Shown here piece by piece: positions 2,276 to 42,042 of a DNA stretch of 64,000 bases. Source of the stretch: Deltaproteobacteria bacterium RBG_16_64_85 (GTDB lineage: Bacteria > Desulfobacterota > Deferrimicrobia > Deferrimicrobiales > Deferrimicrobiaceae); assembly GCA_001798885.1 (NCBI GenBank), contig MGQW01000008.1:1146-65145 (forward strand), read 5' to 3'. Numbering within the stretch: position 1 is the first letter of the stretch; each line of letters starts with the position of its first letter. The translations under genes and the position numbers were made by a program. The notes beneath the pieces were generated by a model, which did no database searches, had not been told where the DNA came from, and saw only the letters and a list, made by a program, of their open reading frames with translations.

Positions 2276-2299
2276 GGGATTTCCCGCACGCCATAAAGG

Positions 2300-2305
2300 T
2301 ATAAT
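2300..2305 (+). promoter_or_regulatory. Putative sigma-70 -10 hexamer (TATAAT) upstream of tatA
   Basis: Perfect TATAAT about 35 nt upstream of the tatA ATG; the -35 element is weak. Confidence 0.3.
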
Positions 2306-2339
2306 GATTCTGTCGTAGGTCGCCGTTTGAGGAGGGAGC

Positions 2340-2525
2340 ATGTTCGGACTCGGATTGCCGGAGTTACTGGTTCTGCTGGTCATCGTCGTCCTGCTGTTCG
2401 GCGCGGGAAAGCTGCCGCAGATCGGACAGGGCCTGGGGGAAGGGATCCGCAATTTCAAGAAATCGATGAAGCAAAAAGACGAGGTCGACGTCACCCCTGC
2501 CAAGACCGACGACCAGAAAAAATAG
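2340..2525 (+). CDS. tatA: Twin-arginine translocase subunit TatA/TatE
   Basis: 61 aa, [26 protein letters not shown], the hallmark TatA N-terminus; GAGGAGGG RBS. Confidence 0.85.
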
Positions 2526-2545
2526 GCGCCCTTGCGGCGGCGCCT
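2524..2545. terminator. GC-rich hairpin (AGGCGCC-N8-GGCGCCT) between convergent tatA and the zinc-ribbon gene; possible bidirectional terminator without a U-tract
   Basis: 7-bp perfect inverted repeat located directly after the tatA stop codon. Confidence 0.25.
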
Positions 2546-2558
2546 CCATGGCGTCCCT

Positions 2559-3782
2559 TCAGTCGCTGTCCTTCGCTTCCAGGCGGTAGGCGCTGATCCC
2601 TTCGGGAGCGTTGATAAACACCACCATGAACGGCACGGATTTCCCCGGCGCGACGTCCATGTTGACCAGCTTTTCGCCGAACTGGTTGGAGAGGGATTCC
2701 TCGATCTTTTCACGGGTGGCCGTGCGCAGGGTTTCCGCGGAGAGGACGGTTCCCGCGTAGGAGGTTCTCTCCGCTAACGGCTGATCCTTGCTGTCCAGCA
2801 GCGCTGCGTGGATCCGGATGCCGCTCTTGCGGGTTCTTCCCATGTTCGCCACTTGGCCCTTGATGACAAACAGGTTCCCCGCCCTCGTGTTGGGTTCGTA
2901 GTAGCCGATCAGGTTCCTGACGTCGAATTGTGGGCCGGGCTTGCCGCTACGGGGCAGCCACAGCGATTCCATTCCGGGCACCAGCCCCCGCAGAAGGTCC
3001 TGCCCGTTCTTGGTGAACCCGAGGTAGGCCCCGCCTCCCGCAAGCGCAACGAACAGGAGGACAAGGGCGATCAGGGAGGGCCGCAAGGGCGGGGATGCCG
3101 CCTTCCGCGCCTCGGGCGGTCTCGTGGGAAGGGCTTCCCTGATTTTCCGCAATTCCGGCGAGACAGGAGCGTCCGGTGCGCTTTCCGCCGGAGCCGTCAT
3201 CGATTCCGGGGCGGCGGCGGATGGCGTCTCTTCCGTGGACTCCTGCCGGAGATGGGTGGAGAGATCGAACCTCTCCCCCTTCTCTTCTTTCCTGTGCTCC
3301 TCCTTCAGAAAGTCGTGGGCATCTCCGGTGCCGATGAGGAAATCGGGCATGGCCGCATCTTTCGGCGGTTCGGCGGGAAGATCGAGGTCGAACCTTTCCT
3401 CCGGCCGAAAGTCGATGGCGAGATCCGGAAGGGCGGTCGACTCTTTTTCCTCTTCCGCCGGCGAGGATTTCTCCGTCCCGCTGGTGGCGAGATATTTCCC
3501 GAAGGGGACATCGACCTCGTCTTTTCCCCCGGAGAGTCCGGCCGGGAGAGAGGGTTCCGGCGGCGCCTCTTCCGGCTTTTCCTCCATCGACTCCCGGATC
3601 ACGGAACGAAGGTCGAGGAAACCTTCGCCGGCCTCCTTCGCTGCTGCCGCCTGGGGTTCCTCGGGTTTCAAGACCATGATGGGCTCTCCGCAACGGCGGC
3701 AGCGGACCCGCGCCCCTCTCCCCTTGATCTTGGTCTCGTCCAGCCTGAACCGCGTCCGGCATGCGGGGCACTCGATGATCAT
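2559..3782 (-). CDS. MJ0042-type zinc-ribbon domain membrane protein with a C-terminal DUF3426-like domain
   Basis: N-terminal CPACRTRF...CRRCG zinc ribbon, acidic/Pro-rich linker, one TM helix (LIALVLLFVALAGGGAYLGF); ATG overlaps the hpt stop (ATGA). Confidence 0.55.
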   Translation of the reverse strand: MIIECPACRTRFRLDETKIKGRGARVRCRRCGEPIMVLKPEEPQAAAAKEAGEGFLDLRSVIRESMEEKPEEAPPEPSLPAGLSGGKDEVDVPFGKYLATSGTEKSSPAEEEKESTALPDLAIDFRPEERFDLDLPAEPPKDAAMPDFLIGTGDAHDFLKEEHRKEEKGERFDLSTHLRQESTEETPSAAAPESMTAPAESAPDAPVSPELRKIREALPTRPPEARKAASPPLRPSLIALVLLFVALAGGGAYLGFTKNGQDLLRGLVPGMESLWLPRSGKPGPQFDVRNLIGYYEPNTRAGNLFVIKGQVANMGRTRKSGIRIHAALLDSKDQPLAERTSYAGTVLSAETLRTATREKIEESLSNQFGEKLVNMDVAPGKSVPFMVVFINAPEGISAYRLEAKDSD

Positions 3783-4356: not shown

Positions 4357-5124
4357 AGCCTGCAGCCTCGCCTTGTGCCGGCGCGCTCCCATGGCGCAGA
4401 GCAGGATGCCGGCTTCGTAGAGGATATAGAGCGGGATGGCGATCAGGATCTGGGAGGCCACGTCCGGAGGCGTCAGGACGGCGGCCAGGAGGAGCACCCC
4501 CAGCACGGCCACCTTTCTCCCCTTGCGCAACAGAGCCGGGGTAAGGATCCCGGCCCGCCCGAGGAGGTACAGCATCAGCGGGAGCTCGAACATGATGCCG
4601 AAGGTGAGGAGCAGCCGAAGGATCAAGGACAGGGATTCCTTCATCGACGGCATGGGGACGATGACGGAGCGGCCGAACCCCAGGAAGAAGGAGAGGACCT
4701 GCGGGATGGCCACGAAATATCCGAACGCCATGCCGGCGAGAAGCCCGAACGTCGACCACGCGACGCAGATCTGGACGACCGTCCGCTCCCTTCGATAGAG
4801 GCCCGGGGAGACGAAGCGCCAGAGCTGGTAGAGGATCACCGGGCTGGCGAGGACGAACCCGCCCCAGAGGGCCACCTTGAAGTAGGTGAGAAACGCCTCG
4901 GTGAGTTCGGTGAAGATGAGGCGGGAATTGCCGGGGAGGTGGATGAATAGCGGCCGTAGCAACCACTCGTAGATGTCCTCCGACCAGTTGTAACAGAGTC
5001 CCGCCCCGACCCCGAGCGCAAGAAGGGAGCGGATCAGGCGCTTTCGCAGTTCCTCCAGGTGCTCGGAGAGAGGGAGCCGGACTTCCTCTTCATTACGGGC
5101 TTCCTCGCGGACTTCCTCACTCAT
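4354..5124 (-). CDS. tatC: Twin-arginine translocase subunit TatC
   Basis: 256 aa polytopic membrane protein; N-terminus LSEHLEELRKRLIRSLLALGVG typical of TatC. Confidence 0.9.
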   Translation of the reverse strand: MSEEVREEARNEEEVRLPLSEHLEELRKRLIRSLLALGVGAGLCYNWSEDIYEWLLRPLFIHLPGNSRLIFTELTEAFLTYFKVALWGGFVLASPVILYQLWRFVSPGLYRRERTVVQICVAWSTFGLLAGMAFGYFVAIPQVLSFFLGFGRSVIVPMPSMKESLSLILRLLLTFGIMFELPLMLYLLGRAGILTPALLRKGRKVAVLGVLLLAAVLTPPDVASQILIAIPLYILYEAGILLCAMGARRHKARLQA

Positions 5125-5146
5125 GCGGCGGGGAAACCCGACGGGC

Positions 5147-5386
5147 TCATCCCTGGGAGACCGGCGGGCGGGGCGTGGTCTCTTCCTTCGCGGCCTCCTC
5201 CTTCGGGGCTTCCTCCTTCATGGCCTCGTCAATGCTCTTCTTGACCTCCTCCGAGGCCTTCTTGAACTCGGCAAGCCCCTTGCCCAGACTCTTGGCCAGG
5301 TCCGGCAGCCGCTTCGGCCCGAAAAAGATCAGGACCACGACCAAGATGAGGAGCATCTCCTGGAAGCCGATCCCGAACATTTGCAC
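5147..5386 (-). CDS. Twin-arginine translocase TatA/TatB-family subunit (second copy)
   Basis: 79 aa, MQMFGIGFQEMLLILVVVLIFFGPKRLP; sits directly upstream of tatC. Confidence 0.8.
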   Translation of the reverse strand: MQMFGIGFQEMLLILVVVLIFFGPKRLPDLAKSLGKGLAEFKKASEEVKKSIDEAMKEEAPKEEAAKEETTPRPPVSQG

Positions 5387-5469
5387 CCCCGTGACGATCT
5401 TCTTTTACTACTATACCCCAGGGTTCCGTTCCAAATCCATGTTATCCAATAGGATAAAACCCGCTATCC

Positions 5470-5481
5470 GATCGGATGGAA
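5470..5481. promoter_or_regulatory. Perfect 12-bp palindrome ATCCGATCGGAT in a divergent promoter region
   Basis: Located between the minus-strand tat operon and the plus-strand ATPase-fusion operon; candidate operator. Confidence 0.2.
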
Positions 5482-5608
5482 GGAACGGATCGCGAACCTT
5501 CGCCCGAATGCGCAGACCGCCGTTTTACACGGATTTTTAAAAAGGCACGGCATTTGATAGGAAGATCCATTGAGGTCTTATCCACCACCGATCGCAGGGA
5601 GGAACCGC

Positions 5609-8600
5609 GTGTTCCTGGGTGTCGACATCGGATCGATCAGCGTGAAATTCGCCCTTTTCGTGCCGCCGGGAGGCGGGCCGGTGAGCGAGGAGGTTCTCGG
5701 GACGTTCCAGAATCCGGAGCCGATCGGGATTCCGGGAAGGGGGCAGGCGTATCTACTGTCCTACGATCGGCTCCTCGGGGATCCGAACCGGAAAGTTCCG
5801 GAGCGATTGCGGTACTGGCTGGGCACACTGGGAGCCTCCCGCGTGCCGTCCTTGGCCGTTACGGGGAAGGCCAGCAAGCACCTCTCGGAGAAACTTTCCG
5901 CCCATTACGAAAACGATTTTCGCTGCCTGGTGAAGGCGGTGACCGCGATCTACCCGGATGTCCGCACGATCTTCGAGATGGGAGGGGAAAACTCCAAGGT
6001 GATTCGCCTCGAACCCGGGCGCCCGGGCGAGGCGGTCCGGATCAAGGACTACGACACCAACGGGGACTGCGCCGCCGGCACGGGCTCCTTTATCGACCAG
6101 CAGGCCAACCGGATGCAGTTTGCCGTGGAGGAGATCGGGGAGATGGTCGTACGGGCCGCGAATTCGGCCAGGATCGCCGGGCGCTGTTCCGTGTTCGCCA
6201 AGTCCGACATGATCCATGCCCAGCAGAAGGGGTTTTCCCCCGAGGAAATCCTGAAAGGTCTGTGCGAGGCGGTGGCCCGCAACTTCAAGAGCAACATCAA
6301 TAAGGGGAAAGACCCGGGACCGAAGGTGGCGCTGGCCGGCGGATTGTTCGCAAACCAGGGGGTCGTCCGGGCGGTCTGCGACGCATTCGGGTTCGCCTCC
6401 GGGGACGTCGTCCTTTCCCCCGGCTTCGCGCACCTGAGCGCCATCGGGGCTGCGCTGGCGGCGGCGGAGATCCCGGCGTCGGAGAGGAAAGTCGTTATTG
6501 CGGAGATCTCCGATTCGGACGTCGGGAAGGAGTTCCATAAATCCTTCCCGGCCTGGCCGAGGCTGTCCACGGAAAACGTCGTCTTCCTCCGGGACCGGGT
6601 GGCTCCTCCTCCCCGGATCGAGGGGAAGCCGGAAGTCTTCCTCGGAATCGACATCGGTTCGGTGAGCACCAATTTCGTCCTCACCGACTGGGAGGGGAAT
6701 CTCCTGAAGGAGATTTACGTCGGCACGCAGGGGCGCCCCGTCCAGGTGGTCACCGACGGCCTGCGGGACCTGTGGGAGGAGTTTGGCGACACGGTGACGA
6801 TCCGAGGGGTGGGGACCACCGGTTCGGGCCGGGAGCTCATCGGGGAGCTGGTGGGAGCGGACACGGTCCAGGACGAGATCACGGCCCACAAGACCGGCTC
6901 CACCTTCATCAGCCGCCGCTTCTTCGACCAGCCGGTCGACACCATCTTCGAGATCGGGGGGCAGGATTCCAAGTTCATCGGCCTCGAAAACGGGGTCGTG
7001 GTGGACTTCGCGATGAACGATGCCTGCGCGGCGGGGACGGGATCGTTCCTCGAGGAGCAGGCGGAGCGGCTGGGCATCCAGATCAAGGGAGAGTTCGCCA
7101 CGCTTGCGCTCTCCTCCAAGGCGCCGATCCGGATGGGCGAGCGGTGCACGGTGTTCATGGAGCAGGACCTGAACAACTTCCTCCACCTGGGCGCGGAAAA
7201 GATCGACCTCGTGGCGGGGCTGGCTTATTCCGTGGTCCTCAACTACCTCAACCGGGTGGTCCGCGGGCGCAGGATCGGCGACACCATCTACTTCCAGGGA
7301 GGAACGGCCTACAACGACGCCGTGGCGGCCGCCTTCACGCACGTCCTGGGGAAGAAGATCATCGTCCCGCCGCACAACGGGGTCATCGGCGCCATCGGCA
7401 TGGCGCTGCTCGCGCGAGACAAGGTGAAAGCGCTCGGACGGTCCACACGGTTCCGCGGGTTCGACCTCCAGCAGGTGGACTACCGGCGCCGGGAGTTCGT
7501 CTGCAAGGGGTGCAGCAACGTCTGCGACATGCAGGAGATCCAGGTCGACGGGACGCGCACCTACTGGGGCGACAAGTGCTCCGAGAAGTACCGGAAGGCC
7601 GCCCGCACCGAGACGCGGCCGGTGATCGACGACCTGCCGGCGCGCCGGGCCGAGTACCTCGACCGATTGGCCGAGGGAGCCGAGAGCGGGCCGCGGGGGA
7701 TCGCGGGATATCCCCGCGCCATGTACTACTTCGAGCGGTTCCCGTTCTGGAAGGGGTTCCTCTCGGCCGTCGGGTTCGGGGTGAAGGTCAGCCCGCGGAC
7801 CGACAAGACGATCGCCCGCGAGGGGCTCGAGCTTACGGTCGCGGAGCCGTGCTACCCGATCCAGGTCGCCCACGGACACGTGGCGGCGCTGCTTCGGGAC
7901 GGGATCGACTTCCTGTTCGTCCCCAACGTCATCAACTCGGAGACGGAGCACATGCACACCGAATCCCACTTCTGCCCCTGGGGGCAGACGCTGCCGTTCG
8001 TGCTGGGCGCCGTTCCCAAGTGGGAGAAGGAGCTGCGCCAGAAGCTGCTGTCTCCCACGGTGCGCTTCCGGGACGGCGAGAAGTACGTCGTCGAGGACCT
8101 GTTCGAGTGCTTCGGTTCCCTGGGCGTCTCCCGCCGCGAGATCCGGGAAGGGATACGCGCCGGAACCCGCGAGCAGCGGAAGTTCCACGACTTCCTGATG
8201 AGCGCGGGGGCCGTCGCGGTATCCGAAGTGGAGAAGGCGGGGGCCAACGCCATCGTCCTGCTCGGCCGCCCGTACAACCTGTACGACCGCGACATCAACC
8301 TGAACATCCCCTCCAAGCTGCGTGACCAGTACGGGGCCAACGTCCTCCCGATCGATTTCCTTCCCGTGGACGACATCGACATCCGGGACATCCACGACAA
8401 CATGTTCTGGAACTACGGGAGGAAGATCATCGCCGCGGCGAGGTGGTGCCGGCCCCGCCCGAAATTCCACTTGATCTACATCACGAACTTCAAGTGCGGG
8501 CCGGATTCGTTCATCCGTCATTTCATCACCCGCGCCTCGGAGTCGCCGTATCTCTCGCTGCAGTTCGACGGGCACGGCAACGACGCGGGATACATGACCC

Positions 8601-8656
8601 GGTGCGAGGCCTATCTCGACAGCAAGGGGGTATTGCGCTGGTGGGCGGAAACGTGA
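5609..8656 (+). CDS. Tandem BadF/BadG/BcrA/BcrD(HgdC)-type ASKHA ATPase domains fused to a Cys-rich 2-hydroxyacyl-CoA dehydratase/DCCP-like (DUF2229-type) domain
   Basis: Two FLGxDIGSxS ATPase phosphate-1 motifs (about aa 14 and aa 355 of the ORF) plus a downstream Cys-rich region (CKGCSNVCD...C); GTG at 5609 sits 5 nt after GGGAGGA and is preferred over the TTG at 5570. Confidence 0.65.
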   Translation: MFLGVDIGSISVKFALFVPPGGGPVSEEVLGTFQNPEPIGIPGRGQAYLLSYDRLLGDPNRKVPERLRYWLGTLGASRVPSLAVTGKASKHLSEKLSAHYENDFRCLVKAVTAIYPDVRTIFEMGGENSKVIRLEPGRPGEAVRIKDYDTNGDCAAGTGSFIDQQANRMQFAVEEIGEMVVRAANSARIAGRCSVFAKSDMIHAQQKGFSPEEILKGLCEAVARNFKSNINKGKDPGPKVALAGGLFANQGVVRAVCDAFGFASGDVVLSPGFAHLSAIGAALAAAEIPASERKVVIAEISDSDVGKEFHKSFPAWPRLSTENVVFLRDRVAPPPRIEGKPEVFLGIDIGSVSTNFVLTDWEGNLLKEIYVGTQGRPVQVVTDGLRDLWEEFGDTVTIRGVGTTGSGRELIGELVGADTVQDEITAHKTGSTFISRRFFDQPVDTIFEIGGQDSKFIGLENGVVVDFAMNDACAAGTGSFLEEQAERLGIQIKGEFATLALSSKAPIRMGERCTVFMEQDLNNFLHLGAEKIDLVAGLAYSVVLNYLNRVVRGRRIGDTIYFQGGTAYNDAVAAAFTHVLGKKIIVPPHNGVIGAIGMALLARDKVKALGRSTRFRGFDLQQVDYRRREFVCKGCSNVCDMQEIQVDGTRTYWGDKCSEKYRKAARTETRPVIDDLPARRAEYLDRLAEGAESGPRGIAGYPRAMYYFERFPFWKGFLSAVGFGVKVSPRTDKTIAREGLELTVAEPCYPIQVAHGHVAALLRDGIDFLFVPNVINSETEHMHTESHFCPWGQTLPFVLGAVPKWEKELRQKLLSPTVRFRDGEKYVVEDLFECFGSLGVSRREIREGIRAGTREQRKFHDFLMSAGAVAVSEVEKAGANAIVLLGRPYNLYDRDINLNIPSKLRDQYGANVLPIDFLPVDDIDIRDIHDNMFWNYGRKIIAAARWCRPRPKFHLIYITNFKCGPDSFIRHFITRASESPYLSLQFDGHGNDAGYMTRCEAYLDSKGVLRWWAET

Positions 8657-9951
8657 GCGGCTCTTCCCTCGAGGGACGAACGGTATTTTTTCCAACGATG
8701 ACCGATGCGGGATCCAGGGTCATCGCGGCGGCGTTCCGGTCGGTCGGAATCGATGCCCGGACCATGCCGCCTTCCGACGAAGAGACGCTGGTCCTGGGGG
8801 GGCGCCACTCCTCCGGCGAGGAATGCCTCCCGCTGAAAGTGACCCTCGGGGATGCCCTGAAGCTGCTGGTACACAGTAAGATTCCCCCCGAGAGGATGGC
8901 CATTTTTATGCCGACTTCCGACGGTCCCTGCCGCTTCGGGCAGTACGGCTCGTTCATGAAAGTGGTTTTCCGTGAGATGGGGTACGGCGACGTGCTCCTG
9001 CTGTCGCCCACCTGCGAGGACGGGTACTCCGGCGTGGGAAAGCATGCGGACGAGCTGCTGCGCACCGCATGGCGCGCGCTGGTGGCGGGCGACCTGCTCC
9101 AGAAGCTTTTGCTCCGGGTACGGCCGTACGAAAAGGTGAAGGGGGCCGCGGACGCGGCGTTCGAGGAGGCGATCGACCTGGTCTGCCGGGCGGTCGAGGT
9201 CCGGGGGGAGACCCACAAGCAAAGACTCGAGCGGATCGTGAAGAGCCTGCGACAGGGGAGGGCCCTCCTGAACCAGGTCCCTGCCGATTTCTCGGTCCTC
9301 CGGCCGCTCATCGGCGTGGTCGGGGAGATCTTCTGCCGGCTGAACACGTTCAGCAACGACGATGCGCTGCGGAAGGTGGAGGAGGCCGGCGGGGAGTGCT
9401 GGATCTCCGACGTGAGCGAATGGGTGTGGGCGACCAACGCCGAGCAGATCCGCATGCTCAAGCGCTTCCGCAAGCATCTCACAGTGGAAATGTTCGGCGC
9501 CTGGCTGAAATGGCACTTCCAGCGGAAGGACGAGCATGCCCTCCTGGACGTGTTCCAGGGGGATTTCCGGGGCTACGAGGAGCCGCACGACATCCGGGTC
9601 ATCTACGACCTTGCGCGCCCCTACCTGCCGCCGGAGGGAGCCTTGGGCGAGATGATGCTGTCCGTCGGGAAGACGGTCTACCTGCACCGGAAAGGAGCCG
9701 ACGGAATCCTGGACATCAACCCCTTTTCCTGCATGAATGGAATCGTATCGGAGGCGGTCTACCCCCGCGTCTCCCGCGATTGCGACGGGCTGCCGGTCCG
9801 GGTACTCTATTTCGACGGGACGCGGGTGGACCGAAGGTACGAGCTGGAGATCTTCATGGACCTGGTGCGCGCCTATTCGGCGAGGAAAAAGACGCTGCGC
9901 CGCCTCCCGGAAGGCGTGGGGGTTGCTGTCCCGCGCGCGGATGCCGGTTGA
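8653..9951 (+). CDS. DUF2229/HgdAB-like partner subunit of the upstream ATPase fusion (putative Fe-S radical enzyme component)
   Basis: GTG overlaps the upstream stop (GTGA); conserved Cys residues (CLPLK, CRFGQYG, PTCEDGY); family assignment made by pattern only. Confidence 0.55.
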   Translation: MSGSSLEGRTVFFPTMTDAGSRVIAAAFRSVGIDARTMPPSDEETLVLGGRHSSGEECLPLKVTLGDALKLLVHSKIPPERMAIFMPTSDGPCRFGQYGSFMKVVFREMGYGDVLLLSPTCEDGYSGVGKHADELLRTAWRALVAGDLLQKLLLRVRPYEKVKGAADAAFEEAIDLVCRAVEVRGETHKQRLERIVKSLRQGRALLNQVPADFSVLRPLIGVVGEIFCRLNTFSNDDALRKVEEAGGECWISDVSEWVWATNAEQIRMLKRFRKHLTVEMFGAWLKWHFQRKDEHALLDVFQGDFRGYEEPHDIRVIYDLARPYLPPEGALGEMMLSVGKTVYLHRKGADGILDINPFSCMNGIVSEAVYPRVSRDCDGLPVRVLYFDGTRVDRRYELEIFMDLVRAYSARKKTLRRLPEGVGVAVPRADAG

Positions 9952-11137: not shown

Positions 11138-12585
11138 ATGCAATACCACGGCGTCTCTTTGAATAAATTGTCCGACATCATGTGGGAAATTCCTCAGGCC
11201 GGCGGGATGCGGGTCCCGGGCCTGATCTTCGCCTCCGAGGCGATGATGGGCGACATCCTGAAAGACGAGGCCGTGCGGCAGGTGATGAACGTGGCCTACC
11301 TGCGGGGATCCTCCGGTACAGCATCGGGATGCCCGACATCCACTGGGGATACGGCTTCCCCATCGGGGGAGTGGCGGCGATGGACCTCGACGAGGGGGTA
11401 ATCTCCCCCGGTGGCGTGGGGTACGACATCAACTGCGGCGTGCGCCTCCTGCGGTCCGGTCTCACCGTCGAGGCGCTGCGTCCGAGACTCCCGGAGCTGT
11501 TGGGCGCCCTGCATCACGGGGTTCCCTCGGGGGTCGGCTCCACGGGCTTCGTCCGCCTTTCGGGACCCGACGTGGAGACGGTGTTGAGCGAAGGATCCCG
11601 CTGGGCGTCGTCGGCGGGGTTCGGGACGGACGAGGACGTCGCGTTCACCGAGAGCGGGGGAAAGTACCCCGGCGCCGACCCGGACGCCGTCTCGACGGTG
11701 GCGAAGAAGCGAGGCAGGGAACAGCTGGGGACTCTCGGATCGGGGAACCACTTCCTCGAAGTGGACGAAGTCATGGAGATCCACGACGACGAGGCGGCGG
11801 CGGCTTACGGGCTCTTCATCGGACAGGCGGTGGTCCTCATCCACTCCGGATCGCGGGGGCTCGGCTACCAGGTGTGCGACGACTACCTGGTGACCATGGC
11901 GGAGTACATGCGGAGGAACCGCATCGAACTGCCGGACCGCCAGCTGGCATGTGCACACATACGCTCCCCCGAGGGGGAACGGTACCTCTCCGCCCTGGCG
12001 GCGGCGGCGAACTTCGCCTTCGCCAACCGGCAGCTCCTGGCGCACCAGGCCAGGGAGACGTTCCTCAAGGTGCTTAAGATAGGGCCGCGCGACCTCGGGA
12101 TGCGGCAGGTGTACGACGTCGGCCACAACAACGCCAAGTTCGAGGAGTACGAGGTCGACGGGCGAAAGAAGAAGGTGCTGGTCCACCGGAAGGGTGCGAC
12201 CCGGGCGTTTCCGCCGGGGCACCCCGAGATCCCGGGGGAGTACCGGAAGGTCGGCCAGCCGGTGTTCATCCCCGGCGAGATGGGCAATGCTTCCTATGTC
12301 CTTGCGGGGGCCCCGGGAGCGATGCGGCTGTCGTTCGGCTCCACCTGCCACGGGGCGGGCCGCCGGATGAGCAGGACCCAGGCCAAGGCGAGCGTCCGCG
12401 GGAAATCGATCGTCCAGGAGATGGAAAGGCGGGGGGTGCTGGTCGCCTGCGCCTCCATGAAGACCCTCGCCGAGGAGATCCCCGAGGCGTACAAGGACGT
12501 GTCCGCCGTCGTGGACGTCGTGCACGAGGCGGGGATCGCGCGGAAGGTGGCCAGGCTCAAGCCCGTTGCGGTCGTGAAGGGCTGA
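11138..12585 (+). CDS. rtcB: RNA-splicing ligase RtcB, interrupted by a 1-nt frameshift in a G4 run near 11304-11308 (sequencing error or pseudogene)
   Basis: ORF 11138..11401 encodes the RtcB N-terminus up to NVAYLRG; ORF 11182..12585 continues with ILRYSIGMPDIHWGYGFPIGGVAA...GSGNHFLEV...; adding one G restores a single RtcB-length ORF of about 482 aa. Confidence 0.8.
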
Positions 12586-28876: not shown

Positions 28877-31468
<2,592 letters not shown>

Positions 31469-31560
31469 ATTCCAGAGAAGGCGCCGGCTCTCGTAACCAG
31501 TAGGTACTGTAAAGGTTTTTTTACAAGATCCTGCCGAAATCGACGGTCCCGCCCACATGC

Positions 31561-31589
31561 TTGACAAATGCCGATGACCCGGGTATGTT
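31561..31589 (+). promoter_or_regulatory. Sigma-70-type promoter TTGACA-N17-TATGTT upstream of ispE
   Basis: Consensus -35, 17-nt spacer, -10 with 4 of 6 matches; about 30 nt upstream of the ispE GTG. Confidence 0.45.
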
Positions 31590-31621
31590 GCTTTAAAAAC
31601 AACGTTTGATATGGGCACCGT

Positions 31622-32473
31622 GTGAACGCATCCAGTGGATTCTCCTTTCTTGCTCCCGCCAAGCTCAATATTTCCATGAAAGTGTTCGGCAAGCGTCCCG
31701 ACGGGTTTCACCACATACGGTCGGTCATGGTCCCCGTATCCCTCCATGACGAGGTCATTGTGGAGGAGACGGATGCGGGAATCCAGGTAGAGACCGACGA
31801 CCCTGTTGTCCCTACCGACAGTGCGAACACCTGCCATCGCGCGGCCGCGCTGTTCATGAATTGGGCGGGTGCACCAAAAGGAGTCCGGATACGAATCCGG
31901 AAGAGGATTCCGGCCGAGGCGGGCCTGGGGGGCGGCAGCTCGGACGCCGCCGCGACCTTCAAGGGGCTGATGGCCCTCACGGGGCGAATTCCCGAGCGGG
32001 AAACGCTCCTGGGGATGGCGGCCCGGGTCGGGGCGGATGTCCCCTTCTTCACGCTGGGAGCACCGGCGATGGCGGAAGGCATCGGCGAACGCCTTACGCC
32101 GGTCGAGTGGGGCGTCCCGTTCCACGCGCTGATCGTCAAGCCGCCGTTCGGGCTTTCCACGAGGGAAGGGTACGCAAATCTTCGGCGCGGAACGGGAGAT
32201 CCCCCGGTGGCGGCGGAAATTCCCGCCTTCCGGACCTGGGAGGATCTGGTTCCCGCCGTCAACAACGACTTCGAGAGTGCGTGGGAGGGCGTCCGGCCGG
32301 AGATCCGTGCGATCAAGGGGGAGCTGTTGTCCGCCGGCGCCAGGGCGGCGGGGCTGTGCGGCAGCGGCTCGGCGGTATTCGGGCTGTTCGAGAGCGCGGA
32401 AGGCGTGCGCGGTGCGCGGGGGATGCTTTCGCTGGAAGACGGGCGGAAGCTGTTGGTCGCCCGAAACATCTGA
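31622..32473 (+). CDS. ispE: 4-diphosphocytidyl-2-C-methyl-D-erythritol kinase
   Basis: GHMP kinase motifs; N-terminus FLAPAKLNISMKVFGKRPDGFHHI typical of IspE; GTG start. Confidence 0.85.
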   Translation: MNASSGFSFLAPAKLNISMKVFGKRPDGFHHIRSVMVPVSLHDEVIVEETDAGIQVETDDPVVPTDSANTCHRAAALFMNWAGAPKGVRIRIRKRIPAEAGLGGGSSDAAATFKGLMALTGRIPERETLLGMAARVGADVPFFTLGAPAMAEGIGERLTPVEWGVPFHALIVKPPFGLSTREGYANLRRGTGDPPVAAEIPAFRTWEDLVPAVNNDFESAWEGVRPEIRAIKGELLSAGARAAGLCGSGSAVFGLFESAEGVRGARGMLSLEDGRKLLVARNI

Positions 32474-36743: not shown

Positions 36744-37061
36744 ATGAGAAGGATCCTTTTTCCCGTATTCGGCCTGCTGACGATCGCCCTCCTTGCCGGC
36801 TGCTACCCCAGGGGGCAGATTTACGGCGTGGGCAACGAGGGGGGACTGATCTTCGCGGTGAACCCACCGGACGCCGAGGTCGTGCTGGATGGCGTCATCC
36901 AGGGAAAGGCTTCGGAGTTCACCGAGGAGAGGTATCTCAAAGTGGCCAGTGGAACCCACAAGCTGGAGATTCGGCTCGCCGGCTTCGAGACGTACAACCG
37001 GGAACTCTACGTGTCGAATTCCCTGCTGCGGATCGAAACGACGCTGGTCCGGAAAGAGTAA
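36744..37061 (+). CDS. PEGA-domain-like lipoprotein
   Basis: Lipobox LLAGC; NPPDAEVVLDG...GTHKLEIRLAGFETY resembles a PEGA domain. Confidence 0.45.
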   Translation: MRRILFPVFGLLTIALLAGCYPRGQIYGVGNEGGLIFAVNPPDAEVVLDGVIQGKASEFTEERYLKVASGTHKLEIRLAGFETYNRELYVSNSLLRIETTLVRKE

Positions 37062-37071
37062 AGGGAAAATC

Positions 37072-37179
37072 GGGGACGTTCTTGAACTTTTGGAAAAGTT
37101 GGGGACGTTCTTGAACTTTTACAACATCCCTTCATAAAAAGTTCAAGAACGTCCCCAACTTTATTACAAGAACGTCCCC
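37072..37179. repeat. Cluster of four copies of a 20-nt motif GGGGACGTTCTTGAACTTTT (two direct, then two inverted) filling the gap between convergent genes
   Basis: Copies at 37072-37091 and 37101-37120; reverse complement AAAAAGTTCAAGAACGTCCCC at 37136-37156; partial CAAGAACGTCCCC at 37167-37179; same family recurs at 48.9 kb. Confidence 0.7.
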
Positions 37180-37194
37180 AATATCAAACGCCCT

Positions 37195-38547
37195 TTACTT
37201 TTTCCGGACGGCTCCCCACCAGGCCTTGAGACGATCCGAGATCGTCTTTTCGTAGCCCGCTTCCGAGGGCTCGTAATATTTGCGCCGGCCGAGCGTCTCG
37301 GGGAAGTAGTTCTCCGGGACGAAGGCCTCCGCGAAGTCGTGGGGGTACTGGTACTTCTCGCCGTATCCCAGCTCCTTCATCAGGCGGGTGGGGGCGTTGC
37401 GCAGGTGCATCGGCACCGGGTGGCTCCCCCCGCCCTGCACGTCCTTCATGGCACGGCCGAACGCCGTGTAGACCCGGTTGCTCTTGGGCGCGGTGGCGAG
37501 ATAGACGACCGCCTGGGCCAGTGCCAGCTCGCCTTCGGGGCTCCCCAGCGTGCGGTACGCCTCTGCCGCCGCAAGGGTGAGCTGGAGGGCTCCCGGGGCC
37601 GCATTCCCGACGTCCTCCGACGCGAAGCGGATCATCCGGCGGGCGATGTAGAGGGGGTCCTCGCCCGCCGAAAGCATCCGCGCCAGCCAGTAGAGGGCGG
37701 CGTCGGGGTCGGACCCCCGCAGGCTCTTGTGGAATGCCGAGATGAGATTGTAGTGCTCCTCCCCGTCCTTGTCATAGAGCAGCGCCTTCCTCCGGAGCGC
37801 CTCCTCGGCCACGGGCACGTCGACCTGCTCGAGGTTCCGGTGCTCCGCGATCGCTACCGCTGCCTCCAGCGCGTTCAGGGCGACGCGCGCGTCCCCGTCC
37901 GAGATCTCCACGATGTGCCGTAGGGCGTCGGGGGAGAGGAACGATTCCTTCTTTCCCAGTCCCCTTTCCGCTTCGGTCAATGCCCGCCGCGCGATGATTT
38001 CCACCTCGGCCGGAGCCAGGGGAGTGAGGACGAGAACGCGACAACGGGAAAGAAGCGCGTTGCGGATCTCGAACGAAGGATTCTCCGTCGTGGTTCCGAA
38101 GAGAGTGACGGTGCCGTCCTCGACGAATGGGAGCAGCGCGTCCTGCTGGGCCTTGTTGAACCGGTGGATCTCGTCGATGAAGAGGATCGCGGGTCGGCCC
38201 GCGGAGCGTCCGCTCCGTTTCAACTCGGAGAGCGCGTCCTTGATTTCCTTGATCCCGGAGAGGACGGCCGAATAGGGGAGAAAGACCGCCTTCGTCTCCG
38301 TGGCGATGATCCGGGCGAGCGTCGTCTTCCCCGATCCGGGGGGGCCCCAGAAGATCAGCGAGGGAAGGGGACGGGCCGAGAGCACAGAGGAGAGGAACCT
38401 CCCCTCCCCCAGGATCTCCTCCTGCCCGACGAATTCGAGGAGCGTCCTGGGGCGCATCCGGTCGGCAAGGGGAGCGCGGGGCGGCTGCGCGCCGGGAAAC
38501 AGCGAAAATGGCGGCCGGGGCTCGGTCATGGGCTTTCTCTTTTTCAT
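37195..38547 (-). CDS. rarA: Replication-associated recombination protein A (RarA/MgsA AAA+ ATPase)
   Basis: Walker A GPPGSGKTT, LFIDEIHRFNK, and the C-terminal MgsA helical domain. Confidence 0.9.
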   Translation of the reverse strand: MKKRKPMTEPRPPFSLFPGAQPPRAPLADRMRPRTLLEFVGQEEILGEGRFLSSVLSARPLPSLIFWGPPGSGKTTLARIIATETKAVFLPYSAVLSGIKEIKDALSELKRSGRSAGRPAILFIDEIHRFNKAQQDALLPFVEDGTVTLFGTTTENPSFEIRNALLSRCRVLVLTPLAPAEVEIIARRALTEAERGLGKKESFLSPDALRHIVEISDGDARVALNALEAAVAIAEHRNLEQVDVPVAEEALRRKALLYDKDGEEHYNLISAFHKSLRGSDPDAALYWLARMLSAGEDPLYIARRMIRFASEDVGNAAPGALQLTLAAAEAYRTLGSPEGELALAQAVVYLATAPKSNRVYTAFGRAMKDVQGGGSHPVPMHLRNAPTRLMKELGYGEKYQYPHDFAEAFVPENYFPETLGRRKYYEPSEAGYEKTISDRLKAWWGAVRKK

Positions 38548-38860
38548 TATATTCCGGATTGTCGGAAGTGGCGATGCAGGCGATGTCGGAGCATGATTAC
38601 CCCGGCGACGTTTCGTATTTACAACGTATTTGCAAAGCGGGTGAAATCAGGAGCCGCCGGACTCTCCGCGAATTAGAAAAGATCGCGATTGAAAGTGCCC
38701 TCGGAAAAATTTAAACTGCCTCCGGGAACATGCCGGGGAATTGGGACGCATCTTGGAGATGGATGCGAGCGATATCTTTCCGGTAGTGCAGTCAGCTCGC
38801 CGGCAGAAATCGGATCAGGATATGATTCCGTTGAAAATTCAGAACCATTAAGGGGAGTCT

Positions 38861-39910
38861 ATGAAAAAAGCGCTGACCGTCCATCTGGTTCTGGTGGGTT
38901 TGTTTGTCATCGGATTACAGGGAAAGGGATTCTGTCAGGAGCCAAGGAAAGACTGCTTTTTCTTCTCCAGTCTCCATTATACCGCGAAAGGGATGGCTTA
39001 TTGGTACGACAAGACCAATGGTGGATTGGAAATCCTTACAGGTGTCCCTTATTCAAACCTCGGGTGTAAGAATTGCCATACCCCGGGGTGTGATCGGTGC
39101 CATAAAGTTGAAAAGGATGGGAAAGCAGCCTATTCCACCAAAGCAGCAAAGAAACAAGAGATGTGTCTTGAATGCCATGCCCGTGAGCAGGCGATCCTTA
39201 AAATTGACAGGGCATCGAAACAGGAGGATGTCCATTTTGCTCTGGGAATGGCTTGTATGGACTGTCATTCCCAAAGAGAGGTGCATGGGGATGGGATCGA
39301 ATATGTCTCCATGAAACAAACTGGGGCCATGGATACAAAATGCGAGAAATGCCATAACTCCACCAAACCAACCGATTCTCATGCTGTACATAAGGAAAAA
39401 CTGGATTGTAAATCATGCCATGTTCGACATGTCGTCAGTTGTACGAATTGTCACTTTGAAACCCTTGTCAAAGAAGGAAAGCGTGTCTCCATTCCGGTTT
39501 CCGGATGGGTATTCCTCATGAACTACGGCGGAAAGGTAACTTCGGCGAACATGCAGACCTTCTTGGTAAAAGGCGACAAGACATTTTTCATGTTTGCCCC
39601 GCAGATGAGTCACTCTGTGATGAAAATGGGCAGGAAATGTGAAGATTGTCACGGCACAGAAACCATGAGACAGGTTCAGAAGGGGAATGTTTCTTTAACC
39701 TGGCTTGAAGAAGGAAAAGTAATGAATTTAAAGGGGGTTATTCCGGTAGTGGATGGAGTGGACTACCAATGTGTCTATCAAGATTTCAAGGAAGGAAAAT
39801 GGATTCCGATCAAAAATCCTTCCAAACCGATTTATCATTATCCCGCATTTGGTAAACCTCTTACGAAAGAACAACTCGATAAGCTTGCGGAGCGTATGGG
39901 GAGAAAGTAA
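38861..39910 (+). CDS. Secreted octaheme c-type cytochrome
   Basis: Signal peptide plus eight CxxCH motifs (CKNCH, CDRCH, CLECH, CMDCH, CEKCH, CKSCH, CTNCH, CEDCH); markedly lower G+C and A/T-rich codon choice than flanking genes. Confidence 0.85.
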   Translation: MKKALTVHLVLVGLFVIGLQGKGFCQEPRKDCFFFSSLHYTAKGMAYWYDKTNGGLEILTGVPYSNLGCKNCHTPGCDRCHKVEKDGKAAYSTKAAKKQEMCLECHAREQAILKIDRASKQEDVHFALGMACMDCHSQREVHGDGIEYVSMKQTGAMDTKCEKCHNSTKPTDSHAVHKEKLDCKSCHVRHVVSCTNCHFETLVKEGKRVSIPVSGWVFLMNYGGKVTSANMQTFLVKGDKTFFMFAPQMSHSVMKMGRKCEDCHGTETMRQVQKGNVSLTWLEEGKVMNLKGVIPVVDGVDYQCVYQDFKEGKWIPIKNPSKPIYHYPAFGKPLTKEQLDKLAERMGRK

Positions 39911-40000
39911 CCGAAGACACACGATTTAACAATGCGTCATTGTCCGCGGAAAGGAAAGTATTCAGGCCTCGTGGAGATCGTGCGGGCCCGGAACGGAATG

Positions 40001-40028
40001 GACCGGTTCATCCTGTGACCGGTTCATC
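40001..40028. repeat. Tandem direct repeat GACCGGTTCATC-N4-GACCGGTTCATC
   Basis: Two exact 12-mers 4 nt apart, between the convergent cytochrome and OsmC-like genes. Confidence 0.3.
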
Positions 40029-40045
40029 GGGACCCTTTCACGCAC

Positions 40046-40480
40046 CTATCGAAAGAACCCCTCGACCATGACCTTTGTCTTTATCGAATTGGAAATCAGA
40101 CAGTTGGCTTCCACCTTGGCCATTATCTCTTTGGCCTTTCCGGCATCCTCACTGTTCTTCAAGGTCACCTTCGGTCTCAGCGTGACCGAAGTCACCTGAA
40201 ACTTGCCGTCAACCAGTTCCAGGCGGCCTTCGGCATCGCACTCGTAGTCCGTAAAGGACAAGCCAGCCCGTTCGGCAAAAGCCAGAAACGTAGACAGGAC
40301 ACAAACATTCACAGAGGCAACATACAGATCCTCCGGTGACCAAATGCCCTCGTGCCCCTTGAACTCCGGCGGAGTCGCCACCTGGATGTCGGGTTTCCCC
40401 GGCGACGAGGCCACTCCCATCTTTTGCCCGGTCCATTTCACCGCCGTACGATAGGAGTAGACTTTGCCACGGACTTCCAT
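40046..40480 (-). CDS. OsmC/Ohr-family peroxiredoxin-like protein
   Basis: About 140 aa with the OsmC fold pattern (...ASVNVCVLSTFLAFAER...EANCLISNSIK); the second ATG after GGGAGG is chosen as start; ORF track extends to 40600. Confidence 0.7.
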   Translation of the reverse strand: MEVRGKVYSYRTAVKWTGQKMGVASSPGKPDIQVATPPEFKGHEGIWSPEDLYVASVNVCVLSTFLAFAERAGLSFTDYECDAEGRLELVDGKFQVTSVTLRPKVTLKNSEDAGKAKEIMAKVEANCLISNSIKTKVMVEGFFR

Positions 40481-40734
40481 TTTCATACCTCCCGTCGTAT
40501 CTGTCCAAAACAGGTCTTTTCTAAAATGGAATGGTGCGTCGGCGTTCCTTCCACTCCGGTCTTCTTTTTCCCAGGAATGCCTGCACCCCTTCCACGGCAT
40601 CTTCCTTGGCGCAGAGGGTGGCGAACAGATGGATCGTCAGGCACAACGCGATTCACCAGACCGTGTTTTTCGGTCGCCATCCTTCCTTCTTCGAGAGCTC
40701 AAGGGAACCGTCGTCCCCCTCTTTACACGATTCC

Positions 40735-40941
40735 TCATTCCTCGATCTCTACGACATCTGGAACATATCCAGTCCCGCCGCCACCGCAGCTGGTCTGGCC
40801 GCCCATCTCGGCATCGATAAGATCCGCAAGGAGGCGGGCATGATCGACCAAACTACGTTTGCAGTAGAGGGGGTCGGGCAATCCGGCTGTCGCAATATCA
40901 TCCTTGGTGGTGGTCTCCGTAACGACGAACCTGGAACTCAT
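40735..40941 (-). CDS. Small hypothetical protein (about 68 aa, 3 Cys)
   Basis: ORF 40735..41010 trimmed to MSSRFVV...; no recognisable family; lies in the lower-GC island. Confidence 0.2.
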   Translation of the reverse strand: MSSRFVVTETTTKDDIATAGLPDPLYCKRSLVDHARLLADLIDAEMGGQTSCGGGGTGYVPDVVEIEE

Positions 40942-41187
40942 CCTATCCCCCTTGCAGGAAAAGGGCCCCGGTCCGCCTTGTGTGGTCGCTCCTCCCACGC
41001 TAAAATCCACGGATCCCGGCGATCCGCAGGGATGCTATAGTATCCCCGTAACCGGATCATTCGGCAATCGCTTTTCAAGCGACACCGAAAACGGTCGGAG
41101 AAAGTGAATCATTCGCACTGAAGGGTTGGTTTGCGTGGGAGTTACAGGTCTTTCTCTTTTCCTTCCGATATATTATCCTAATCCCCG

Positions 41188-42042
41188 ATGAAGTGCGCCG
41201 GGATCATCGCCAAGCACACCGACCCCCGGGCGGGAAAGATCGTCTCCGACCTTTGCGAATGGATCATCGCCCGCGGTCGGCGGGTGGTCCTCGACCGGGA
41301 GACCGCTGCCCTCGTCCCCCGCGGCGACGCCGTCGTCCGCTCCAAGCTGCCAGAGAAATGCGACTTCCTCATCGTCCTCGGCGGGGACGGCACGCTCCTT
41401 TCCGCCGCGCGGGTGGTTGGGACCTCCGGGAAGCCGATCCTGGGCGTGAACCTCGGGGCGCTGGGGTTCCTCACCGCGATCACGCTGGACGAGCTGTACC
41501 CCGTCCTGGAAAAGATCTTCAACTACGACTTCGACTACGACGAGCGGATGTTGCTGGTCGCCCACGTCCACCGGTTGGGCGAGCGCGTGGCCAACTACAC
41601 GGTCCTGAATGACGTGGTCATCAACAAGGGGGCGCTCGCCAAGATCATCGACATCGAGACGACTGCGGGAGAGATGTACCTGTCCACCTTCAAGGCCGAC
41701 GGCCTCATCATCTCGACGCCCACCGGATCGACGGGGTACTCCCTCTCGGCGCAGGGCCCCATCGTCTACCCGATGCTGCGCACGATACTGATCACCCCGA
41801 TCTGCCCGCACACGCTCACCAACCGGCCGCTCGTCATCCCGGACGACATGGTGGTCCGCGCGGAGCTGCGCTCCCGGGAGACCGACGTGTTCCTGACGCT
41901 CGACGGCCAGGTGGGGTTCGGGCTCCGCGAGAGGGACGTGGTGGAGGTGAAGAAGGCGGAGGCCCCCCTGCGGTTCTTCCGTTCCCCCTCCAAGGACTAC
42001 TTCACCGTCCTGCGCACCAAGCTCAAGTGGGGAGAGCGGTGA
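41188..42042 (+). CDS. nadK: NAD(+) kinase
   Basis: GGDGT motif, NE/D short motif, 284 aa. Confidence 0.9.
   Translation: MKCAGIIAKHTDPRAGKIVSDLCEWIIARGRRVVLDRETAALVPRGDAVVRSKLPEKCDFLIVLGGDGTLLSAARVVGTSGKPILGVNLGALGFLTAITLDELYPVLEKIFNYDFDYDERMLLVAHVHRLGERVANYTVLNDVVINKGALAKIIDIETTAGEMYLSTFKADGLIISTPTGSTGYSLSAQGPIVYPMLRTILITPICPHTLTNRPLVIPDDMVVRAELRSRETDVFLTLDGQVGFGLRERDVVEVKKAEAPLRFFRSPSKDYFTVLRTKLKWGER

Follow-up and report, generated by a model that had tools for sequence, protein, structure and literature searches.

The window analysed here, a 64,000-nucleotide stretch of contig MGQW01000008.1 from Deltaproteobacteria bacterium RBG_16_64_85, carries an islet of about 2.6 kb (38554-41146) between rarA and nadK, which encodes an octaheme c-type cytochrome and an OsmC-family protein. 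It is highly probable that this islet is a composite of horizontally acquired DNA that was inserted into the 26-bp divergent rarA/nadK promoter gap of a Candidatus Deferrimicrobiaceae bacterium. Horizontal transfer is supported by empty sites in relatives, by a composition that is discordant with the host, by a 94% identical copy of the cytochrome block (in contig L007) in an unrelated context, and by a direct repeat that flanks the islet; on these four grounds, the proposal in the first-pass annotation of this DNA that the region was horizontally acquired and inserted into the core genome is upheld. As such, the islet is an ordinary case of horizontal transfer, a small decaying genomic islet, and one that can be reconstructed in detail.

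The two genes that flank the islet belong to the core genome, and both were confirmed by Pfam matches, as was expected from the placement of the island between rarA and nadK in the first-pass annotation. On the left, rarA/mgsA (37195..38529, minus strand) encodes a protein of 444 amino acids (aa) with MgsA_C, AAA_assoc_2 and AAA domains; on the right, nadK (41188..42042, plus strand) encodes a protein with NAD_kinase and NAD_kinase_C domains, the orthologues of which are 83-95% identical in relatives. The rarA start codon is the CAT at 38527-38529 and not at 38547, in agreement with the gene calls of loci L001-L006 and with the relatives, and the foreign DNA therefore begins at approximately 38544-38554. 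Related loci were collected with a NadK scan of one genome per species, which returned 35 loci, 16 of them from the same family (NadK 82-95% identical; labelled Deltaproteobacteria or Candidatus Deferrimicrobiaceae). In six relatives (L012, L043, L016, L017, L015 and L020) the site is empty, with rarA and nadK divergent and their start codons 26-28 bp apart, as in the sequence CAT-gggCTTTCTCTTTTCCTTCCGATATATTATCCTAATCCCAC-ATG. Searches with tblastn found neither the cytochrome, nor the OsmC protein, nor the 68-aa small open reading frame (ORF) of the islet (orf68) in any of the 35 related loci. The synteny comparison that had been suggested for this region thus yielded six empty sites of 26-28 bp and no cargo in 35 scanned loci, and the islet is missing from the orthologous site in close relatives. 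Other searches did recover the islet at the rarA/nadK site in two close relatives, L050 and L056.

The composition of the islet departs sharply from that of its surroundings. The GC content of the window is 64.3%, whereas that of the interval 38548-41185 is 50.5%, with 45.1% in the cytochrome gene (38861-39910), 53.9% in the OsmC gene and 55.5% in positions 40601-41187. Among windows of 1050 nucleotides (nt), the minimum of the entire 64 kb starts at 38801 and has a GC content of 45.0%, compared to a mean of 64.2% (standard deviation [sd] 3.6), a departure of approximately 5 sd. The GC content at third codon positions (GC3) is 0.48 in the cytochrome gene and 0.65-0.68 in the OsmC gene, compared to 0.86 in rarA, 0.94 in nadK and 0.86 in recN, and the mean over 52 ORFs of the window is 0.81 (sd 0.11). 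An index similar to the codon adaptation index, calculated with the window's other genes as the reference set, was 0.395 for the cytochrome gene against a mean of 0.70 (sd 0.12). Altogether, the sliding-window and codon-adaptation calculations that had been proposed as checks confirm that this is a lower-GC island in which both composition and codon usage depart from the host, and that the cytochrome gene is the lowest-GC stretch of the 64 kb. Two milder dips (53.5-54% GC) were also present in the window, one at 36800-37400, which spans the 3' end of a PEGA-domain gene and the convergent gap preceding rarA, and one at 31400-31800.

An alternative account of these observations is that the islet is ancestral to the family and was differentially lost in the relatives, with the low GC being a gene-specific constraint of a lysine-rich heme protein. 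The cytochrome is indeed rich in lysine, and precise loss between junction repeats seems to occur at this site (L015 is empty, and L014 and L013 share an insert, described below). However, GC3 is free of amino-acid constraint, and homologues of the cytochrome follow the GC content of their hosts (r = 0.83, mean difference 0.4%, in 57 loci with enough flanking sequence), such that hosts at 58-60% GC (L123 and L128) carry copies with a GC3 of 0.77-0.82. Strong discordance was found among these 57 loci only in the window (45% vs 64%) and in L007 (44% vs 59%); low GC is therefore not an intrinsic constraint of the gene, and the window and L007 are outliers. Moreover, the synonymous divergence (Ks) of the cytochrome between the window and L007 is 0.156, compared to 0.42-0.61 between the window and its nearest empty-site relatives, and the islet holds pseudogene debris from other loci. 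Ancestry followed by differential loss is thus very unlikely, and the evidence favours acquisition by horizontal transfer.

L007 is a 28.5-kb metagenome contig of approximately 59% GC whose neighbouring genes are wholly different from those of the window, and the low-GC block matches it with 94.3% nt identity over 38832-39954 (1123 nt). In L007 (9500-11100) the block is also a low-GC islet (44% vs 59%); it is located approximately 700 nt from a tRNA-Pro(cgg) gene (11757-11833) at the end of the contig, and the cytochrome is followed by a 75-aa ORF and a NifX-like ORF (Nitro_FeMo-Co, weak). Between the window and L050, Ks was 0.02-0.14 for the flanking genes and 0.135 for the cytochrome gene, and the Ks of the cytochrome between L050 and L007 was 0.122. 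Taken with the value of 0.42-0.61 that separates the window from the nearest empty-site relatives, L012 and L043, these data indicate that the islet is younger than the divergence from L012/L043 and at least as old as that from L050. The ratio of nonsynonymous to synonymous divergence (Ka/Ks) of the cytochrome was 0.18-0.21 in all three pairs, which indicates that the gene is under purifying selection; that of OsmC was 0.35-0.43, with few substitutions. The next-closest homologues of the cytochrome (73-79% aa identity) are encoded in genomes of 45-49% GC, where they are compositionally native, and one of these is labelled Syntrophaceae; the ultimate source of the cytochrome would therefore be a genome of approximately 45-48% GC, presumably from a Syntrophaceae-like clade.

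The islet is flanked by a direct repeat of approximately 24 nt (family D6 of the repeat search). The left copy (38530..38553; GGGCTTTCTCTTTTTCAT----TATATT) contains the rarA leader with its ribosome-binding site and a -10-like TATAAT on the minus strand, and a promoter-like TCGCCA-17-TATAAT is present at 38574-38546, also on the minus strand. The right copy proper is located at 41147-41174 (GGTCTTTCTCTTTTCCTTCCGATATATT) and forms part of a longer segment that includes the conserved nadK-proximal promoter/leader (41147..41187; GGTCTTTCTCTTTTCCTTCCGATATATTATCCTAATCCCCG). When the two copies were aligned locally, none of 500 shuffles reached the observed score; a search of the flanks for attachment-site duplications, which had been suggested in advance, therefore did find a duplication of this type, and the islet is bounded by direct repeats of its target. 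A 36-nt core upstream of nadK is conserved, differing by no more than 5 substitutions, in the window and in 14 of the 16 family loci scanned; of the remaining two, L022 has a core copy with a 1-nt insertion and L044 is without the 5' end of nadK. The junction core (for example CTTTCYCTTTNCCNNCCGATATATTAT) had no match in IMG/VR.

With respect to mechanism, the islet would have been inserted by recombination within the spacer, with a duplication of approximately 24-29 nt that included the rarA ribosome-binding site and the -10 element, and both flanking genes would therefore have kept their expression signals. Three candidate mechanisms are an att-type reaction carried out by a recombinase whose gene lies elsewhere, a single crossover on minimal-length homology, and the repair of a staggered break, after which selection would retain only duplications of the rarA ribosome-binding site and -10 element and of the nadK promoter. 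In its deviant GC and codon usage, absence from relatives, direct repeat, mosaic of intact cargo and pseudogenes, and decay by deletion, the islet resembles other small genomic islets; it differs from them in its size of only 2.6 kb, in its position inside a 26-bp divergent promoter, in its two-block composition, and in having no integrase, transposase or tRNA target. Pfam labels identified no mobility genes (integrase or transposase) within 10 kb on either side of the site in the window, and there is no tRNA gene at the insertion site, the nearest being 5.6 kb away; the hallmarks of a classical island are thus missing. Additionally, searches of the plasmid, phage and IMG/VR collections did not find the cytochrome, and an Rfam scan of 38300-41400 returned nothing credible.

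Since the source is a metagenome-assembled genome and the GC content drops abruptly, it was considered whether the contig of a low-GC organism had been joined to a high-GC genome during assembly or binning. The contigs of three relatives (L010, L019 and L023) do break at the junction, 40-220 nt upstream of nadK. However, the exact cytochrome is indexed in 36 collection blocks, from which 24 contigs were read, and the six loci fetched from JGI and ENA assemblies share the junctions of the window and match it at 99.9% identity along 21 kb; because the JGI and ENA assemblies are separate, the insert is not an assembly artefact. A chimera is further contradicted by the diverged variants L050 and L056, which have the same insertion between the same genes, and by the duplication of host sequence at the junction, and it is considered extremely improbable.

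Outside its two intact genes, the islet contains debris. Directly inside the left repeat, 38554..38708 (plus strand; YPGDV...RELEKIAIESAL) has a weak NCBIfam PspF match (E 0.007) and is possibly a decayed C-terminal remnant of a sigma54-dependent activator; PAS-sigma54 activators adjoin the cytochrome in 16 of 84 loci elsewhere, and in L007 one precedes a paralogue of the 110-aa ORF described next. Adjacent to this segment is fragment A (38709..38828, plus strand), which corresponds to residues 61-99 of a 110-aa ORF (blastn 87.5% over 120 nt to L007 9785-9904; tblastn 72% over 39 aa), and near the right end of the islet is fragment B (41094..41150, plus strand), which corresponds to the 3' flank of this ORF together with its final codons (blastn 87.7% over 57 nt to L007 9912-9968). 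In L007 an intact 110-aa ORF precedes the cytochrome, and only these pieces of it are left in the window. Inspection by eye for a sigma54 promoter ahead of the cytochrome gave no more than a poor match, which lies within fragment A. Fragment B is at the right end of the islet in both the window and L050, and part of it is upstream of the cytochrome in L056 (743-775). The location of the two fragments at opposite ends of the islet would need two ancestral copies or multiple rearrangements.

The two source blocks meet in a seam (39955..40045). In L007 and L056 the cytochrome is followed by a NifX-like ORF, and the seam may be what is left of that ORF after decay. The seam includes the 12-nt sequence GACCGGTTCATC twice (repeat family D8; 40001-40012 and 40017-40028), and most of it has no aligned counterpart in L050 (39920-40024). 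The short tandem repeat at 40001-40028 that was listed in the first-pass annotation is thus present, but it sits in a decaying seam and is deleted in a sister lineage. No significant match elsewhere was found for the 140 nt at 40954..41093. Within these, CTATAGTATCCCCGTAA (41035-41051) is identical at 16 of 17 positions to the rarA-proximal junction of L011, a marginal match (score 29 vs a shuffle maximum of 28) that may be the relic of an older junction or promoter copy.

Comparison of the three islet variants revealed how this decay proceeded. The 2.9-kb contig L056 carries a less-deleted variant that retains approximately 110 nt of L007 11335-11443 (the NifX-like ORF) after the cytochrome, and L050, which is 94-96% identical to the window across both flanks and the islet, has further deletions in a hydratase pseudogene. 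The window, L050 and L056 have each lost different non-coding parts, and each retains both the cytochrome and the OsmC frame intact; these differing losses are therefore attributed to independent deletions from a larger ancestral insert.

The second block of the islet encodes the OsmC-family peroxiredoxin-like protein (40046..40480, minus strand). This protein is 144 aa in length, and is not the 184-aa ORF; an identical protein (100%) is named OsmC in 'Deltaproteobacteria bacterium RBG_16_64_85', and its gene has 86% nt identity to the L052 locus described below. Its Pfam OsmC match (PF02566, 60.5 bits vs a cut-off of 27.5) substantiates the earlier description of an OsmC-like protein, and two cysteines are present at the usual positions in the translation (NVCVLS and ANCLIS), such that it has both the domain and the two catalytic cysteines of the OsmC/Ohr family of thiol hydroperoxide reductases. 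It differs from the defined members of that family in that it scores below all NCBIfam subfamily cut-offs (SACOL1771 56 vs 166; Ohr 32 vs 89; OsmC 31 vs 86). Judging from these features, OsmC is probably a two-cysteine thiol hydroperoxide reductase that acts independently in the cytoplasm.

The OsmC block (40007-40953, minus strand) has 86-88% nt identity to a locus in L052 and L053 in which an intact 329-aa enoyl-CoA hydratase (ECH) is encoded directly upstream of OsmC, and Pfam identified ECH_1 in the L052 protein. In the window, this hydratase is a pseudogene (40542..40953, minus strand), as revealed by tblastn with the intact L052 protein and by the 86-88% blastn match: residues 1-69 (40941-40738), 243-255 (40671-40633) and 301-329 (40628-40542) are left, and the rest is deleted. 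The 68-aa small ORF (40735-40941) is the N-terminal extension ahead of the ECH_1 domain and does not itself contain an intact ECH_1 domain. Consequently, the small ORF of no assigned function that had been annotated as part of the island is not a gene of its own, but the 5' stump of a pseudogene covering residues 1-69 of the 329 of the hydratase. On L136, which is the same contig as L052, the intact ECH-OsmC pair is located beside arsenic and thiol-redox genes (1221-3265 and 4536-8837), including those for an ArsP permease, a low-molecular-weight phosphatase, ArsR-type regulators, an SBF transporter, DsbD and thioredoxin-like proteins. A single contiguous donor fragment, with L007 joined to L052, found no support in further OsmC contigs, where the gene next to OsmC encodes at least 456 aa and the tRNA-Pro/cytochrome block does not follow.

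The course of events that best accommodates these data is one in which the low-GC cytochrome block (L007-like) and the ECH-OsmC block (L052-like) are joined in one islet, and in which, since insertion, the non-essential parts have been removed by deletions that differ among the three variants, the cytochrome and OsmC frames being kept under purifying selection. The two genes would then be neighbours by an accident of insertion, with each retained for its own usefulness; their adjacency is attributed to insertion history because of their convergent orientation, their different sources and the separate compartments in which their products would act. The first-pass annotation had instead described the region as a redox module. 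If the cytochrome and OsmC were one co-selected redox or stress module moved as a unit, for example a periplasmic defence against peroxide or nitrosative stress that feeds a cytoplasmic peroxiredoxin, it would be understandable that both ORFs are intact in all three islet variants while their surroundings decay, that both have a Ka/Ks below 1, that cargo elsewhere at this junction also includes stress and repair genes (the Redoxin/AhpC-TSA and DNA glycosylase genes of L011), and that DUF1858 (a sub-threshold ScdA_N match) and Prismane-family genes are among the neighbours of the cytochrome in other genomes. However, the two blocks match different source loci, the convergent genes do not form one operon, OsmC was found in none of 84 other cytochrome neighbourhoods, the cytochrome is absent near OsmC at L052, L054 and L136-L140, and the two proteins would occupy different compartments. 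A single module is thus decidedly unlikely, and the reading of two separately retained genes is preferred.

It should be noted that several observations weigh against the account of a composite, horizontally acquired islet. The three cytochrome copies are approximately equidistant from one another (Ks 0.12-0.16), which is compatible with transfer in either direction between the L007 lineage and this one, or from a third party; furthermore, L007 and L052 are both metagenome contigs, which may or may not stem from one genome. OsmC is only mildly atypical in GC3 (0.68) and its homologues form a graded series of identities; it could have originated in a relative within the family rather than in a distant donor. 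No single simple insertion accounts for the layout in which fragment B is opposite fragment A. In addition, an empty site is not always ancestral at this junction, as L015 appears to have precisely lost an insert. Lastly, the role proposed below for the cytochrome is deduced from sequence; its AlphaFold2 (AF2) model is poor and a Foldseek search with the model was empty.

Within these bounds, the islet provides a clean and datable case in which an uncultured, subsurface, iron-cycling lineage acquired respiratory and stress genes. An empty site, three stages of decay and a near-identical copy in another genome are visible together, as is selection that keeps only the two useful genes. Two leads also follow from it, namely an unstudied family of octaheme cytochromes, and a tiny intergenic site that has repeatedly taken up different cargo without a visible recombinase.

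The first of these leads is the 349-aa octaheme c-type cytochrome itself (38861..39910, plus strand). Its eight CxxCH motifs and a Pfam Cytochrome_C7 match above threshold (38.4 bits) corroborate its earlier annotation as an octaheme cytochrome c; all eight motifs are invariant in an alignment of 47 homologues, and the possession of several conserved CxxCH motifs makes the protein a multiheme cytochrome c. By eye, there is an N-terminal hydrophobic signal-like stretch (MKKALTVHLVLVGLFVIGL), which is aligned in the homologues, and no lipobox was seen. Seven further histidines (H39, H125, H142, H174, H177, H190 and H251) and two methionines (M45 and M130) are conserved. The seven histidines together with methionine could supply distal heme ligands, and the count of ligands alone makes a heme with His/Met ligation or an open coordination site possible. 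Heme 8 is carried by the C-terminal 140 residues, which are beta-rich. The AF2 model, built from the 47-sequence alignment, had a mean confidence (pLDDT) of 61, which is poor, and is a heme-free model of a multiheme protein; Foldseek comparison of this model with the PDB gave no match with E<1, an uninformative result, as would be anticipated without the hemes.

The cytochrome belongs to a sizeable family. The first search returned 649 homologues, and at E<=1e-30 the family forms 173 clusters at 50% identity; as judged by the source labels on the matches, its members are conserved, at 60-79% identity, in Desulfobacterota, Nitrospirota and Bacteroidota. The only names found for family members were 'hypothetical' and 'cytochrome c3 family', neither a characterised member nor a solved structure was found, and literature searches on this family and on the host family found nothing specific. 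In some larger proteins (680-1150 aa) the octaheme unit (approximately residues 33-345) is repeated in tandem, with two or three copies; three such proteins, P0241 (978 aa), P0244 (1150 aa) and P0245 (694 aa), would carry 16-24 hemes, and P0244 is encoded on contigs of up to approximately 3.4 Mb. In other genomes, the cytochrome is accompanied by CbiA/MinD-type ATPases with ferredoxin domains and by radical SAM proteins (38 of 84 loci), as well as by NifU_N (14), DUF1858 (14), Prismane family (12), Nitro_FeMo-Co/DUF5320 (11), DUF302 (8) and CGGC (7) proteins, a set of neighbours that is typical of anaerobes.

Comparisons with known multiheme cytochromes placed the protein apart from each of them. 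Pfam thresholds for cytochrome c7/c3 are passed on residues 121-187 (PF14522, 38.4 bits; PF14537, 26.6 bits); however, these models describe a three- or four-heme unit, and the cytochrome has eight hemes, approximately 150 further residues and a conserved family of its own. It shares with the NrfB/NrfA/ONR/MccA superfamily (2ozy, 1gu6, 3sxq and 4rkm) multiple CxxCH motifs and a weak local profile similarity at approximately residues 92-198 (hemes 3-7), with E values of 0.0013 for NrfB and 0.008-0.05 for MccA, ONR and NrfA, the latter being local matches of approximately 60-90 residues. It differs from this superfamily in having no full-length similarity, in its length (349 aa vs 160 or 450-730 aa), in being without CxxCK or another special active-site motif, and in its beta-rich heme-8 part, which has no match. 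Full-length homology together with a special active-site heme ligand, as would identify an octaheme enzyme (HAO/ONR/OTR/MccA) or NrfA, was thus not found. The pentaheme selenoprotein polysulfide reductase MccSep (PMC13510729) was considered and rejected, as it has five hemes and a selenocysteine, whereas the cytochrome has eight hemes and no in-frame UGA.

The first-pass annotation had raised extracellular electron transfer as a possible role for this region. The cytochrome scored 29.8 bits against the MtrA/DmsE decaheme model TIGR03508 (cut-off 192), and a PDB search gave a match to OmcE (7tfs) with an E of 0.59 over 34 residues and no match to OmcS or OmcZ; it is therefore not a member of the outer-surface or extracellular electron transfer cytochromes (MtrA/DmsE, OmcS/OmcE/OmcZ). 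Because of this, and because no lipobox was seen by eye, the protein is not read as an outer-surface electron conduit, and the suggested role finds no support, as similarity to Mtr/Omc-type proteins is not above chance and the protein looks periplasmic and soluble. Instead, the cytochrome is likely to be a soluble periplasmic electron-transfer protein or reductase; it would be exported by Sec, loaded with eight c-hemes, and would work in the periplasm; less probably, it would found a new family of periplasmic octaheme enzymes.

The second lead concerns the junction. Approximately 15 genomes of the family have at least 5 different contents at the one 26-bp site. Apart from the empty site and the cytochrome-OsmC islet, these include an HD_5-domain protein flanked by repeats of 27-29 nt (L013, 9083-10000; L014, 4869-5742); a Redoxin/AhpC-TSA protein with a YajQ-like ORF (by eye) and a methylpurine DNA glycosylase (MPG) (L011, 8053-10000; also L010); a protein with NAD_binding_10 and DUF2867 domains (L021, 3530-5110); and a 125-bp filler (L022, 9200-9324). 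L018 is rearranged upstream of position 10001, where a 124-aa protein with four CxxCH motifs is encoded approximately 150 nt upstream of nadK; rarA is not present within 10 kb. Several of the cargos elsewhere have functions in stress or repair. Three independent inserts lie between direct repeats of 24-29 nt; the inserts of L011 and L021 had no significant repeat in shuffle-tested alignments, and no recombinase was found inside any junction insert. The sister loci L014 and L015 are 94-96% identical at the nt level; L014 has the HD_5 insert with 27-nt repeats, and L015 has a clean empty site (6360-6389). The HD insert is shared by L014 and the more distant L013, and it has diverged about as much as the flanks have; L015 is therefore explained by precise loss between the repeats, or by replacement with an empty allele.

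These observations bear on whether the rarA/nadK spacer is a dedicated attachment site, at which a recombinase encoded elsewhere inserts and excises recombinase-less cassettes in the manner of integrons, pdif modules or CIME/IMEX elements. The variety of contents (empty, cytochrome-OsmC, HD_5, Redoxin and MPG, DUF2867 and filler, plus the rearranged L018), the 24-29-nt direct repeats around three independent inserts, the one precise loss that is proposed for L015, and the fact that no insert holds a recombinase are all consistent with such a site. Recombinase-less cassettes (integron, Acinetobacter pdif and CIMEs/IMEX) likewise have one short site, alternative cargo without a recombinase, repeats at both ends and apparently precise loss, although the likeness is one of resemblance only. 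They differ from the present case in that no attC- or dif-like element was recognised here, the likeness to dif being weak and judged by eye only, in that the repeats are host promoter sequence, and in that no integron integrase or Xer association has been shown for the rarA/nadK site. A dedicated attachment site is rather unlikely, as the L011 and L021 inserts are without a significant repeat, the element ends of the different inserts have nothing in common apart from the host-derived repeat, this repeat comprises the functional rarA ribosome-binding site and -10 element and the nadK promoter such that selection by itself could favour its duplication, no matching site is present in IMG/VR, and the cytochrome block of L007 is at a different type of site, near tRNA-Pro. 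More specifically, it is doubtful that the rarA/nadK promoter is a dedicated site of cassette exchange in which the duplication of approximately 24-29 nt regenerates both promoters and precise removal is possible, where the agent would be a recombinase encoded elsewhere or RecA acting on minimal-length homology. If this were true, the rarA/nadK site would be a chromosomal 'promoter-trap' analogue of integron and pdif cassettes, often with stress-defence genes.

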